A stretch of DNA of 64,000 nt, taken from Octopus vulgaris (lineage: Eukaryota). This document shows positions 17,700 through 57,500 of the stretch, in pieces (position 1 is the stretch's first letter; each line of letters starts with the position of its first letter). The notes beneath the pieces are model-generated. The model was not told the DNA's origin, ran no database searches, and was given only the letters and a program-made list of their open reading frames with translations. The stretch spans positions 36,890,001 to 36,954,000 of the forward strand of contig OX597838.1 in the NCBI GenBank assembly GCA_951406725.2. The letters are read 5' to 3'. A program made the translations under genes and the position numbers.

Positions 17700-17880
17700 T
17701 GTGTGTGTATCATTGGCAATTTTTTTTGTCCGTCTTCCTTTCCTTGGATCTTTCCTTTTTCTATGTTTCTGACAAAGTGCTCCGCTCGAAACGTTAAATC
17801 CTCCTGTCTTTCCTTTCCTGAGTGTCCAATAACACTCACGTTATGTTTTCTTTTTGTGTTTTCATGTTTGGATTAACTTT
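17700..17880 (+). mobile_element. Hammerhead-bearing repeat family C (PLE terminal-repeat-like)
   Basis: gttt-CTGACAA-a-gtgc(tcc)gctc-GAAA-cg-TT-aaa at 17765-17798; homologue on the minus strand at 47915-48110; flanked by TA repeats. Confidence 0.7.
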
Positions 17881-38865: not shown

Positions 38866-39189
38866 TATATTGTGTAAAGGATCACGGGTAAGGCCAGATC
38901 AATGTGAAGTGAATGCAAGGCAGATCACAAGAAAGCAAGTATGTATGAATTAATGTAGACTTACCTTGCATTCAATATTTTGGAGGTTATGACCCCATCC
39001 TTAGGAAATTAATGTATGTTGCACACACATCTGCAACATATGTTAATTTCCTGAGGATGGGGTCATAACCCCGAAATATTGAATGCAAGGTAAGTCGACA
39101 TTAATTCATATATACTTGCTTTCTTGTGATCTGCCTTGCATTTACTTTGCATTGATCTGGTCTTACCCATGATCCTTTATACAGTATAT
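38866..39189. mobile_element. Fold-back element, family D (about 155-bp arms), inserted in the internal microsatellite of an old SINE; hammerhead motif at 39047-39083
   Basis: Inverted arms around gcacacacatctgc; ttc-CTGAGGA-t-ggggt(cata)acccc-GAAA-ta-TT-gaa. Confidence 0.85.
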
Positions 39190-43188: not shown

Positions 43189-43580
43189 TCTTTATATATA
43201 AAAGTGAGGTTGTGTGCTGTCTGTCTCCTACGATTTAGATTCCTAACTACTCCCACATTTTGCGGTGCAGTTTAACCAAAACCGGGTATCTTATAGTCGT
43301 GATTCATATCGAGCCCTTCTGGGTATTAGCGCACGTCTACGATGAGTGTATGATTAAAAAAAAATTTAACATCAATTTTTCCCATTTTAATGCATTTTTG
43401 GCATATATAAGGGAAGTAACTCTCTAAAAATTTATTATTAAATCTCAGAACGTAAAAAGCTACAGTACCCCCCCTTTGTGGTTAGCCATATTGAGATGGC
43501 TATTATACTTTACATCTCTAAAAAATGCTTATATAGTTATTTCCCTTACAAACCCGAGCAACGCCGGACGATACTGCTAG
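43189..43580 (+). mobile_element. Non-autonomous Helitron
   Basis: Highly similar to 13497-13894; TC...hairpin...CTAG. Confidence 0.8.
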
Positions 43581-43587
43581 TATAGAA

Positions 43588-43980: not shown

Positions 43981-44076
43981 TATATATATATATATATAGA
44001 TAGATAGATAGATAGATATCAATATATATGGAAAAAAGTCAAGGTAGAAAATGCTAAAATAATTTTATAAAAAACA

Positions 44077-44119
44077 TTTCAGTACCGGTTTCAGTCATTG
44101 AGACTTTTTCAACTGTAAG
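44077..44119 (-). ncRNA. Hammerhead motif, U3:A8 core variant
   Basis: Minus strand: cag-TTGAAAA-agtc(tcaat)gact-GAAA-ccgg-TA-ctg. Confidence 0.6.
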
Positions 44120-44186
44120 TTTGGAAAACAGTTAAATTTTGGAAAAATTAATTGAAAAGTTTTGTAAAAGAATATTTGCATTGTGT

Positions 44187-44583
44187 TCAAATACAAGGGG
44201 CCACCAACCTCTTGTGTTGCCCAGAAATCATGTCAACTGATTTCATCAGGAACTTTTGTGGGATGGAACAAGACACAACTTCAAGTTCTTCCAAAGTCTT
44301 TGGTTTAGTACAGTAGACTTTATTCTTTAACCAACCCCTAAGAAATAAGTCACAGGGTGTTAATCTGGGACTCCTGCACGGCCACTCGTTTGGACCAGAA
44401 CGATCCATCCATCTCTCGGGGAAGCAGGCATTCAGCTATTCAGAAACAACAAGAGCAATACCATTACAGATTAAATTTTTCATAATTCAAAAGCAAAAGA
44501 CGAAATGATTGAGAAAAAAATTACAATTAATAGATAATTCATCAGTATTTTAAAATAAGGAGTTACTTTTCAATCACCCTGTA
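44187..44583 (-). pseudogene. Tc1/mariner-superfamily transposase fragment
   Basis: WPCRSPRLTPCDLFLRGWLKNKVY..KPKTLEEL matches the WPPRSPDLTPCDFFLWG motif; TIR-like tacagggtgattgaaaaag end at about 44565-44583. Confidence 0.75.
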
Positions 44584-44754
44584 GTTTAAATTTAAAGAAA
44601 ACAAAAGATGAAGACAGGTGAAGGAACAACAAGCAGAAAAAATGGAAAAGGTTTTGATGTTTCGAGCCTACGCTCTTTGACAGAAAGGATTGAGAGGAAA
44701 AAATGGAGAGAAAAAAGCATGTAGGGATTAATGTTTCAACATGATATACTCTTA

Positions 44755-45170
44755 TTCTTTTACTCTTTTACTTGTTTCAGTCATTTGACTGTGGCTATGC
44801 AGGAGCACGACCTTTAGTTGAGCAAATCGACCCCGGGACTTATTCTTTGTAAGCCCAGTACTTATTCTATCGGTCTCTTTTGCCGAACCGCTAAGTGACG
44901 GGGTCGTTTCCACGTAAACACACCAGCATCGGTTGTCAAGCAATGCTAGCGGGACAAACACAGACACGCAAACACACACACATATATATACCGGCACTAC
45001 ATATATACGATTGATCGGCTTCTTTCAGTTTCCAGTCCGTACCAAATCCACTCACAAGGCATTGGTCGGCCCAGGGCTATAGCAGAAGACACTTGCCCAA
45101 GATGCCACGCAGTGGGACTGAACCCGGAACCATGTGGTTGGTTAGCAAGCTACTTACCACAGAGCCACTC
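44755..45170 (-). mobile_element. SINE family 1
   Basis: Reverse-complement copy. Confidence 0.88.
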
Positions 45171-45187
45171 TTGTGTCTATATATATA

Positions 45188-45455
45188 TACATTATTTATA
45201 TTCTTCATATTTGATGGATATTTGTCCTCATCTTGTTTGTTGTTAACACAATGTTTCAGCTGAAATACCCTCAAGCCTTCATCAGGTGGCTAGTTTTTGA
45301 TGGAGTTTCTCTATATATCTCCACCGAAGTCTAATGTCGGCTCCGTACTGATTAGATAATACAGTTCTGATGAATGCTGGAAGGTATATCAACTGAAATG
45401 TTGTGTTAACAACAAACAAGATGAGGACAAATATCCATCAAATGTAAATAATGTA
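45188..45455. mobile_element. Fold-back element, family F (arms about 45188-45285 and 45367-45455), decayed hammerheads
   Basis: Arms begin at CTGATGA; inferred consensus CTGATGA-a-ggctg...cagcY-GAAA-cg-TT-gtg, with the stem III CpG reading ca in one arm and tg in the other. Confidence 0.8.
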
Positions 45456-45681
45456 CATAATTCCTCTTCTCTTAAATATAGAACTGTATAATATACATAC
45501 TTTTGTTAAAGCTGCAAAATTTTGACAATAGTCTTACTTAGAACTGTAATAGAGGACACTAGAGGGCTTAAAATTTGGGCTGTGCAGTGTAGGGGCACTA
45601 ACCAACACCATTTGTTGATTCCCTGATTTGTGGCCTAAGATGTGTATGATCATGTACCGTCATGGTAAACTTGGATCAATT

Positions 45682-46082
45682 ACTCTTTTACTTGTTTCAG
45701 TCATTTCACTGCGGCCATGCTGGAGCACCGCCTTCTAGTCGAGTAAATCGCCCCCAGGACTTATTCTTTGTAAGCCTAGTACTTATTCTATCAGTCTCTT
45801 TTGCTGAACCACTAAGTTACGGGACATAAACACACCACCATCGGTTGTCAAGCAATGGTGGGGGGACCAAAGACAGACACGCAAACATATACATACATAT
45901 ATATATATATATACATATATACGACAGGCTTCTTCCAGTTTCTGTCTACCAAATCAACTCACAAGGCTTTGGTCGGCCCGAGGCTATAGTAGAAGACACT
46001 TGCCCAAGGTGCCACGCAGTGGGAATGAACCCGGAACTATGTGGTTGGTAAGCAAGCTACTTACCACACAGCCACTCCTGCA
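45682..46082 (-). mobile_element. SINE family 1
   Basis: Reverse-complement copy. Confidence 0.88.
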
Positions 46083-46549
46083 CCAATTGCATATCTTTGG
46101 TCAATTTCTTCTGTTATTACAGCCCCCCTCCCCTACAACAAACGGTATTATCACTGTTTGGTTTGTCATTGGGTAACAACAAATGATCTGTGTTGACATC
46201 TCCTGTCAACAAATTGCCTGTCAGATTTTTTGATTTTAAAATTACACTGAAATAAAAAGCCCATTAGTTGAGAAACTGGTCAAGGTTATTGACTGACAGA
46301 TCAGCTGACTGTGAAAATTCTACCTGAATTTCCTCTTATCTAAAACACGCAACTGTTTAAAATTAAAAGGAACAAACAAAGCATTCTCATTTACAGAACC
46401 TTTCCACAAGTACATATATTTGTATACATATACAAAATTTACATATTCATTTTCTTAAGATTTCATTAAATATATATTTCCTTCCTTATTTAGAACTCTT
46501 TTAAACATAAACATAACGATAACTCTGTTCAACATAAACATAACGTCGT

Positions 46550-46588
46550 AAGAAATTTGAAAAGCTAAATGCGAAACCGGTCTTTCTT
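46550..46588 (+). ncRNA. Hammerhead motif, U3:A8 core variant
   Basis: aagaaa-t-TTGAAAA-gc(taaat)gc-GAAA-ccgg-TC-tttctt. Confidence 0.55.
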
Positions 46589-46740
46589 CTAAACTATGTC
46601 ATTGTAAGGAAAAAAATTTTTTGTAATATTCTTCAGACATATTGACTCAAATATATATATTATTTAACCTTTAAGCCTTCTGTAGTTTTTTCACTTTTTA
46701 CTATTTTCTATACATTCAACCACGTGCTTTCACAAACCAA

Positions 46741-46873
46741 CTGTCGGCAACGTGAAACTCGGAGTAACAGGTTTTGTTGAATTTTCTGCTGCTTTAAATA
46801 AAGCATATTACTCTACCACTGGTATTTGAGTACTCTTTTTCCACCTTGTTTCACATTTATGTGTTTACTCCGT
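46741..46873 (+). mobile_element. Family A single arm, hammerhead core deleted
   Basis: Matches 3930-4059; ctgt joined directly to cggcaacg. Confidence 0.85.
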
Positions 46874-46942
46874 TATATATATACATATATATATATATCT
46901 ATATATATATGTATATATACACACATATATTTATATATCTCT

Positions 46943-47245
46943 AGAATTTTTTGCGTAATGAGATAAAAAACCAAGGCTGTGTAGATATTAGAACATTTAT
47001 GGATAGAAGGTCTTACAGCTGTTTCCAGGATATTAATTTATTATATCCCTTCATCGGAGATGGTGTGGGAGGATGGTTAAGTCATAGTTAGTTTAGATGT
47101 GCTACAAAATAGAGAGTGACGTGGAGGAACAAAATAGATGCAAGAAATGTTTGGATATTGAAGATGTAAATCCTAGTTTTTTGGCAGAATGGTATATATG
47201 CAGTATTCCAATATCCTATGAGTTAAGTTCAAAAGTCCAACAGAG
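46943..47245 (-). mobile_element. Family B single-arm copy with hammerhead at 47011-47060 and longer upstream sequence
   Basis: Minus strand: tct-CCGATGA-a-gggatat...atatcct-g-GAAA-cagctg-TA-aga; includes the spacer sequence of the 14-kb copy. Confidence 0.85.
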
Positions 47246-47316
<71 letters not shown>

Positions 47317-47586
47317 AAGGCAAAATGTCAGAAAGACAGGCCAGTTATTCCTCTACAATTTTTATATATCTCCTGTGTATATATATATATATACACTACC
47401 AAACAAACATGATTTTTATTGAACTCAAAATACGTTTTGGAGTCCTGTTCTGATAACTTTCTTAAATACTTTCTTGTAAACTGTTTTTAACATTTTCTTA
47501 TTATTATCAAAGAACGTATATATGTATTTTAATACTTTTCTGACAACCAATACTTAACACAACAAAGTTCATACAGGGCTCTACAT

Positions 47587-47634
47587 TTTACTTTTGACAA
47601 TCTTTTTCTAAAAAAGTGAAACCGGTCAAGTGAA
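47587..47634 (+). ncRNA. Hammerhead motif, U3:A8 core variant
   Basis: tttactt-TTGACAA-t-cttttt(cta)aaaaag-t-GAAA-ccgg-TC-aagtgaa; 7-bp stem I, 6-bp stem II. Confidence 0.65.
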
Positions 47635-47699
47635 TAAACATTTTAAAAATTGCATTTTCGAACCTTTTTCGTGTATATATATATATATATATATTCATT

Positions 47700-48250
47700 T
47701 ATTCTTTTATTGGTTTCAGTCATTTGACTGTGGCCATGCTGGAGCAGCACCTTAGTTGAACAAACTGACCCCAGGACTTATTCTTTGTAAGCCTAGTACT
47801 TATTCTATCGGTCTCTTTTGCACCAACATCAGTTGTCAATTGGTGGTGGTGGTGGGGGGAGACAAACACATGGACAACATATACATATACATACATATAT
47901 ACATATATATATATAAAGTTAATCCAAACAAGAAAGCACAAAAAAACACAACGCGAGGACGTGGAACAAATATAGTATTATTGGACGCTCAGGAAAGAAG
48001 GAAAGAAGGAGGGTTTAACGCTTCGAGCGGAGCTCTTCGTTGGAAACATAGGAGAAGGAAAGATCCAGAGAAGGGAAGACAGAGGAAAAAAAATCGCCAA
48101 CGGTACACATTTATATGACAGGCTTCTTTCAGGTTCCTTCTACCAAATCCACTCACAAGGTTTTGATCAGCCCAAGGCTAGAGTAGAAGATACAGTGGGA
48201 CTGAACCCAGAACCATGTGGTTGGGAAGCAAGCTTCTTACCACACAGCCA
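47700..48250 (-). mobile_element. SINE family 1 with a family C element (47915-48110) inserted in its TA tract
   Basis: SINE halves at 47700-47880 and 48112-48250. Confidence 0.8.
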
Positions 48251-56179: not shown

Positions 56180-57500
56180 ATTTGCGGTTTAGTTTCAAAT
56201 TTAGTAATCTTATTAAGTGTTTTTCTTTTACTTTTCATAGTTGATCATTTGCGTCTTTATTTCGGAAAAGTGAAATATTTGGAATTTTCCATTTGTGCAA
56301 ATGTCACTAAGAGATGAATCTTTAATTTACTGTTTGTGCACTCTCACACAGCTGGTTAGTTTTCTTCCATTTCACTGATCTGTCATTGTATTGTGTTGCT
56401 AGTGATACAGAAGATAAGACTTTTTGTTTTACATTTTGTTCTCCATGTTTGCATCCAACTTCAATTCATTCTCCTGAATCGGTTGGCTCTTCAATATTCT
56501 ATTATTTTACACATCTCGCACCATGTGTCTCCACACTTTGTTACCTGCACTTGTTTCTTTCTCTGATGTGTATCTCACCTTTGTTAGGAGTCTTTTGAGA
56601 TTCTGTAGTAGTCTTCAGCTATTGATGATTTGTGATTATTTAATAACTCGTTGGATATTCGATGATTGATATATAATTGGGAGTTATCATTTGGCTGAAT
56701 CAGTTATAATTGTCTCATTTTCTTTAATTATCAGAATGTCCAGAAAAGGACATACATTTCCTTTGTGAAGTGGCTCAATTTATGAATGCTATTTACTAAT
56801 TTAAAAATCTTACTTATGTTACAAAATATAAAGTAATCATCCAAGAATCTTTTCCAGTTTCCTATTAAATAGAACTGGAAATGTTGATTAGGATTCCAGA
56901 CAGGTATTGATTTTTTTCTTCTAGAAATCCCATTACCAGTGTTGCAAACTTTGGTCCAACTTTCATCCCCATTGCTGTGCCATATATTTGTACATAATAT
57001 TGGTTGTCCAAAAAAAGTAGCAGTCATGATACTTCAAGTATAAATTCTTTTGGGAATGACTCCTGAATTCTTTCTGTTTATTTGACTGTCCAGAATTTTG
57101 CTGCTTCTAATTCTAGAAAATGAGATTGTGTTGACACTGCTTACTTTGAAACTAACTAGGATTGTCTCTTCATCCACTCTTTCTAGAACATGGTGTAAGA
57201 AGTCCATGTAATTATTCATGAAACAGAGACAAATTTGCACAATGGTTTCAAAATTACTTCAAGAAAGTTGCTTAATGGATGGTTTCTAGATGATGGTCCT
57301 GTAACGTTTAGACGTAATTTTAGATTGGATGGTTTGTGGTTTTCCCCATATGGTGTATAGAAGTCCTTTAAGCTGACATTGAATTCTTTAGATATTAGTG
57401 GAATTTTGGTAATCAACTAAAGTTACCTGCTTTTACCTCAGGATTAGTGAGTTAATTGTCATTAAGTAGTGTTTCTGATGTCGGCTGGTCACAAAGTTCA
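56180..57500 (-). pseudogene. Penelope-like element RT plus GIY-YIG pseudogene
   Basis: Minus-strand fragments LRLNVTGPSSRNHPLSNFLEVILKPL, DFL...ILVSFKVSSVNTI (FDVxSLYT motif), GTAMGMKVGP, WKRFLDDYFIF, then SLIFCIT...RVHKQ*IKD (GIY-YIG-like). Confidence 0.8.

Follow-up and report, generated by a model that had tools for sequence, protein, structure and literature searches.

Minimal hammerheads carrying a U3-A8 core have been described in the Cercyon Penelope-like elements (PLEs) of Schistosoma, for which a dedicated descriptor returned about 1,300 hits (Cervera and de la Pena 2014, PMC4209133). According to the same paper, the minimal hammerheads of PLEs show weak cleavage, for which a dimer or dimer mimic is required. 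A natural C3-G8 to U3-A8 covariation was described by Perreault et al. 2011 (PMC3088659), where earlier in vitro activity is cited, and the 3-8 pair, dimers of PLE hammerheads and retrozymes are treated further in PMC3884650, PMC6765202 and PMC7229834. Since the U3-A8 core was already published in 2011 and 2014, the gain from finding it once more is modest, and the more interesting material reported here, namely the U3·G8 and C3·A8 lineages, lies outside the window.

The window, by which we mean the whole 64,000-nucleotide stretch analysed, is repeat-rich, A+T-rich animal DNA (about 32-38% G+C in the region) whose short interspersed repeats resemble those of octopus, and contains three hammerhead motifs, H1, H2 and H3, belonging to the families F1, F2 and F3. 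Like the Cercyon minimal hammerheads of Schistosoma mansoni described in PMC4209133, they are type I motifs in a PLE flanking repeat, they have a short palindromic helix III that implies dimers, and they occur mostly as single truncated copies, with U3-A8 present in more than 1,000 copies. They differ from the Cercyon motifs of that paper in having a cephalopod-like host and a Neptune/Nematis-type parent, and in that U3:A8 dominates the class with the ACCGGU palindrome. The U3-A8 covariants of PMC3088659 alter the 3-8 tertiary pair in the same compensatory way, but they are presented there as a rare variation with several examples, whereas here it is a family-level state in high-copy retroelements. 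Non-LTR retrozymes (PMC7229834) also place type I hammerheads in animal repeats and are resembled by a 359-bp tandem family found in this genome; unlike them, the window motifs are PLE tail stubs and not short tandem arrays. Taken together, H1, H2 and H3 are in our judgement probably minimal hammerheads that sit on the truncated tails of three related PLE families, whose normal pair is U3:A8, likely from one ancestor, and which are predicted to cleave the parent RNA slowly by means of ACCGGU pairing.

Hammerhead motifs in the window

A sequence descriptor that left positions 3 and 8 free found a UUGANAA core followed by GAAA-CCGG-UH at 44112 (minus), 46557 (plus) and 47594 (plus) of the window, which confirmed the three TTGAAAA or TTGACAA motifs listed in the earlier note. 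Type I hammerhead geometry was present in all of them, with the core boxes (C/U)UGAN(G/A)A and GAAA...UH lining a three-way junction that includes stems I and II, and with the palindrome ACCGGU as a short, dimer-type helix III. The difference in stems I and II among the loci, also remarked on in that note, is evident from their geometry (Table 1), and its description of U3:A8 as a compensatory core was correct. A stricter descriptor, in which stem II had to start at the core with three pairs, recovered H1 alone, and an Rfam scan of the window at gathering thresholds returned 0 matches. Because a search restricted to CUGANGA misses H1-H3 by the definition of its pattern, the proposed variant lineage is indeed invisible to such searches, but the variant itself was known already from the Schistosoma hits of PMC4209133.

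Table 1. Hammerheads and element tails in the window (first six rows, window positions), with related loci elsewhere in the genome.
Feature	Position	Strand	Basis or context	Stems and core	Predicted cleavage site
H1, family F1, minimal type I hammerhead	44077..44118	minus	sequence descriptor	stem I CAG/CTG, then a mismatch, then two more pairs; core TTGAAAA, U3-A9 at 44112-44106; stem II AGTC/GACT, 4 bp, 44105-44093; GAAA at 44092-44089, then CCGG TA	after A17, 44083 (from the hammerhead consensus)
H2, family F2, minimal type I hammerhead	46550..46588	plus	sequence descriptor	stem I AAGAAA/TTTCTT, one extra U ahead of the core; core TTGAAAA at 46557-46563; stem II GC/GC, only 2 bp; then GAAA CCGG TC	after C17, 46582
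H3, family F3, minimal type I hammerhead	47587..47634	plus	sequence descriptor	stem I 7 bp; core TTGACAA at 47594-47600; stem II U·U, then 6 bp; then GAAA CCGG TC	after C17, 47627
F1 PLE 3' stub	44030..44200 (ends approximate)	minus	(TA)n/(GATA)n tract at its end		
F2 PLE 3' stub	46484..46715	plus	matches the tail of the long copies L091 and L096 at 96% identity		
F3 PLE 3' stub	47322..47678	plus	matches L193 at 83% identity across 372 nt		
U3·G8 subfamily loci	L182; also L181, L183, L200				
359-bp repeat loci	L196, L221-L250; e.g. G000:C1:20002278-20004542, C4:80857199-80857949				

The stems are atypical. A G10.1-C11.1 pair and an additional nucleotide lying between 9 and 10.1 are frequent in the 2014 consensus and stand outside its descriptor (PMC4209133); the additional nucleotide is not shared here, and the pair at 10.1-11.1 is G-C in F2, where stem II has only 2 bp and an extra U precedes the core, but is replaced by A-U in F1 (G-C in a sister family) and by U·U in F3.

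Helix III consists of ACCGGU alone, which is not long enough for closure within a monomer; the self-duplex of ACCGGU was calculated at -8.3 kcal/mol. In monomer folds, H2 formed stems I and II as drawn, H1 kept stem II with stem I shifted, and H3 preferred a competing hairpin, while the full double hammerhead was absent from all four predicted dimer folds. Following the model of PMC4209133, two copies on a tandem transcript would pair through ACCGGU, and the paired copies may then cut slowly after position 17 and so process the precursor RNA. H2 and H3 share both their strand and the ACCGGU palindrome and are separated by 1,037 nt (window 46550-47634), and on a read-through transcript they could in principle pair with each other. 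Among the rows listed for four contig sets (X19, X20, X10 and X1, from organisms labelled C, D, B and A) against 46380-46800, no alternative letter reached 5% at 46557 or 46562; the ends, strand and level of these contigs are not readable, and the comparison has no bearing on activity.

Penelope-like parents of the three motifs

The earlier note had suggested a PLE as the parent, to be reached by extending the consensus upstream, and parents with reverse transcriptase (RT) and a putative Neptune/Nematis-type endonuclease were found for F1, F2 and F3. Copies of the three families have a fixed 3' end and a variable 5' truncation, and the window stubs are 5'-truncated PLE tails of about 170 (F1), 230 (F2) and 360 bp (F3). 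F2 has eight long copies of up to about 3.2 kb, one of which, L096, contains a reverse transcriptase domain (RVT_1/PF00078, E 5.3e-08, above cut-off), and F1- and F3-type frames align to the L096 protein at 50-58%. A CX4CX2C linker and a GIY-YIG-like C-terminus were read by eye in translations of the F2 long copies; the Pfam search of the F2 parent protein did not detect an endonuclease domain. Endonuclease-bearing PLEs of the Neptune/Nematis type have a CX2-5CXXC linker ahead of a C-terminal GIY-YIG domain. The layout read here (RT, linker, GIY-YIG-like end) matches the description of endonuclease-bearing Neptune/Nematis PLEs in PMC8557442, and the parents are assigned to this type by that layout. 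For F1, an endonuclease remnant lies colinear upstream of the motif in L028/L189, and the sister elements L181 and L186 are near-complete. For F3, L260 has a colinear ORF remnant upstream, L280 has an inverted remnant, and L185 is a sister element.

All motifs of F1-F3 are located in the PLE 3' region or flanking repeat (pseudo-LTR). They follow the ORF by 159-179 nt in F2, by 640-720 nt in F1-type elements, and by an estimated 1.1 kb or so in the F3 locus L260, and in L181 one motif occurs twice, 3,977 bp apart, flanking the ORF. A non-LTR retrozyme was ruled out for H1-H3, which are single stubs of three families, with no short tandem repeats of about 170-400 nt. Two further coding remains were observed: a long N-terminal coding region, a frame of 483 codons, which in an F2-lineage element (L181:6627-5179, minus) separates the RT from the upstream hammerhead, and a decayed PLE-type RT fragment at window 56919-57392 (minus), 32% identical to the F2 protein.

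State of positions 3 and 8 in the three families

Members of each dispersed family were retrieved with the motif and its flanks as query, ranked by similarity to it; 40 candidates were scored out of 107 (F1), 1,673 (F2) and 1,629 (F3), and the best 30 loci were fetched per family. Among the 87 best non-self copies of F1-F3, 83 had U:A at positions 3:8 and none had C:G. By family, U:A was found in 27 of 29 copies of F1 (the others being one C:A and one U:G), 28 of 29 of F2 (one A:A), and 28 of 29 of F3 (one C:A). When F3 copies were chosen by upstream sequence instead (30 loci, 5 of them without an alignable end), 23 of 25 had U:A, with one C:A and one U:G. The F2 motif rewritten with C3:G8 had 0 exact matches genome-wide. 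These data support U3:A8 as the ancestral state of each of the three families, and not as a product of CUGANGA decay. The expectation that a table of positions 3 and 8 would rarely contain mismatches is contradicted at the level of lineages, since elsewhere in the genome U3·G8 and C3·A8 have been amplified as subfamilies.

Genome-wide counts were obtained from the 2.8-Gb assembly with the pattern core-N7-20-GAAACCGGTH, each core being accompanied by a reversed control. TTGANAA gave 11,540 matches against 60 for the control, and the other cores of the ACCGGU class gave 179 (C:G, control 28), 297 (C:A, control 44) and 398 (U:G, control 36), so that 95% of the control-subtracted matches were in paired 3-8 states, a copy number dominated by a few families. 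Canonical CUGANGA searches would miss more than 11,000 motifs here, or about 94% of the ACCGGU class, and hammerhead counts for such genomes would therefore be too low. In the ACRRYYGU-palindrome class, with 7,646 matches (control 408), 74 of the 100 listed were C:G by hand count. At genome density, 0.26 U:A motifs are expected per 64 kb; the three in the window form a local cluster (Poisson p of about 0.0025, uncorrected for the window having been picked), and 40 unselected 10-kb stretches contained 0 motifs against 1.6 expected. Shuffling the window locally ten times produced 0 U:A motifs with a 4-nt palindrome, against the 3 present.

Decay at random from CUGANGA, or matches arising by chance in an A+T-rich sequence, would be in keeping with the low G+C content of the region and with C-to-T and G-to-A being common changes. 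This explanation is refuted by the family state of F1-F3, by the genome counts against their controls, and by the absence of C3:G8 copies in F2, and we regard its probability as negligible.

Number of origins and selection

The co-occurrence of both changes in three contexts had been taken in the earlier note as selection on catalysis and not decay. Decay is rejected by the copies counted above; three contexts, however, are not three shown compensatory events. The parent lineages of F1, F2 and F3 are 53-59% identical in protein and form three separate clades in the protein tree (support 99, 100 and 89%), with the branching among those clades at 43-59% bootstrap only. All Neptune/Nematis-type ORFs linked to an ACCGGU motif had U3, and one inherited switch would thus explain the three motifs and is likely more parsimonious than three. 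Among 50 loci taken from the ACRRYYGU-palindrome class, there was no close C3:G8-bearing relative for rooting; two of them, L282 and L285, clearly match the F2-lineage protein, and neither is tied to a C3:G8 motif. Three independent compensatory switches from C3:G8 to U3:A8, each fixed by selection on catalysis, would fit the separateness of the clades and their unrelated stems, and a switch did happen at least once more in this genome, as the 359-bp repeat holds both C:G and U:A. Against this account stands the uniform U3 of the linked ORFs, and we consider it quite improbable, compared with a single U3:A8 origin that would be common to F1, F2 and F3.

Stems I and II are wholly different between the lineages, yet they still pair, and in an F1 sister family the closing pair of stem II has changed from A-U to G-C. 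Such turnover with pairing kept would fit selection in transposing master elements, and it is there, not in the window stubs, that selection may act. In genomic copies, the core had 12 substitutions in 927 positions and the flanks 163 in 9,303, after CpG columns and columns with at least four variants were left out, and extra conservation of the core was not detected (p=0.35). This indicates that the window stubs are likely inert.

Mismatched cores elsewhere in the genome

A young sister subfamily of F2 has U3·G8. A 29-base sequence from it had 112 exact matches, and 99 of the 100 listed were U:G. Its copies are 98% identical, and one of them (L182:4573-2249, minus) has an unbroken RT-endonuclease frame of 775 codons. 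The subfamily is nested among U3:A8 relatives of F2 with 82% bootstrap, from which it follows that the change from A8 to G8 was likely derived.

The retrozyme-like 359-bp tandem repeat, a separate family with 353 matches, contains an ACCGGU hammerhead. Of its 29 distinct segments, which are mutually dependent, 13 were U:A, 12 C:G and 4 C:A. In a tree made with positions 3 and 8 masked, for which 24 of 28 segments were kept and 4 were dropped for low alignment score, a C3·A8 clade (0.94) came out between the group with U:A (0.97) and the one with C:G (0.98). Position 7 is C in most segments, which puts G8 in a CpG, so that a change of G8 to A could have been a fast first step. The repeat records a second, real 3-8 switch in this genome, and together with the U3·G8 subfamily it shows that single-step intermediates can spread.

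Since both the U3·G8 subfamily and the C3·A8 arrays were amplified, a Watson-Crick 3-8 pair is not strictly needed for spread. Could the motif then be inherited with its structure kept and its catalysis unneeded, as a dimerisation or protein-recognition signal made of ACCGGU and the stems, with the 3-8 pair drifting under weak constraint and A+T-biased mutation? The U3·G8 subfamily, with its matches and its open frame inside a U3:A8 lineage, would agree with this, as would the C3·A8 clade in tandem arrays, the atypical stems, and the Naiad PLEs, which according to PMC8557442 proliferate without canonical hammerheads. However, U4, G5, A6, A9, GAAA and UH occur together across lineages only 53-59% identical despite the turnover of stems; the search patterns required these nucleotides, but in the window families, which a similarity search brought up, they are the family state. 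Furthermore, the paired states make up nearly all of the control-subtracted matches, and U·G is still able to pair as a wobble. We therefore regard a retained signal as unlikely, and predicted slow cleavage by U3:A8 hammerheads of probable common origin as the better explanation of H1-H3.

The stepping stones of the 3-8 switch may have been kept as amplified lineages, namely the young U3·G8 PLE subfamily with its unbroken frame, and the 359-bp repeat in which U3:A8 and C3:G8 clades are joined via C3·A8. The core pair could then be crossed stepwise in living retroelements, and hammerheads with the same palindrome, such as H2 and H3, could complement each other as mixed dimers; we put this forward as a tentative possibility. 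The natural series of cores bears on the open question of the role of hammerheads in PLEs, and its members U:A, U·G, C·A and C:G, whose backgrounds are nearly identical, are ready constructs for asking how much cleavage a PLE needs. In the literature searched, which took in few subscription papers, no description was found of an amplified natural U3·G8 subfamily or of these cephalopod-type families.

Further mismatched motifs were encountered in other repeats. A repeat family seen in L198 and L199 has many identical copies in which C3·A8 precedes GAAACCGGTC, along with a few C3:G8 ones; no clear stem II was found in it, and what was amplified may be a degenerate motif. Another family with U3·G8, its palindrome being ACGAUCGU, is located at L312:2621-7463, where two motifs 4.8 kb apart flank a frame of 339 codons that is PLE-like but of a distant type.

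In the window itself, other hammerhead-like remnants were noted at 47012-47057 (minus), 39051-39080 (plus), 17769-17795 (plus), 44655-44685 (minus) and 48015-48045 (minus), the last two read by eye only. These five belong to repeat families different from F1-F3, their helix III palindromes differ as well, and their cores are mostly C3-type. A short G+C hairpin followed by CTAG lies at a repeat end at 43552-43582, resembling a Helitron 3' end, and the same repeat is found in L199.
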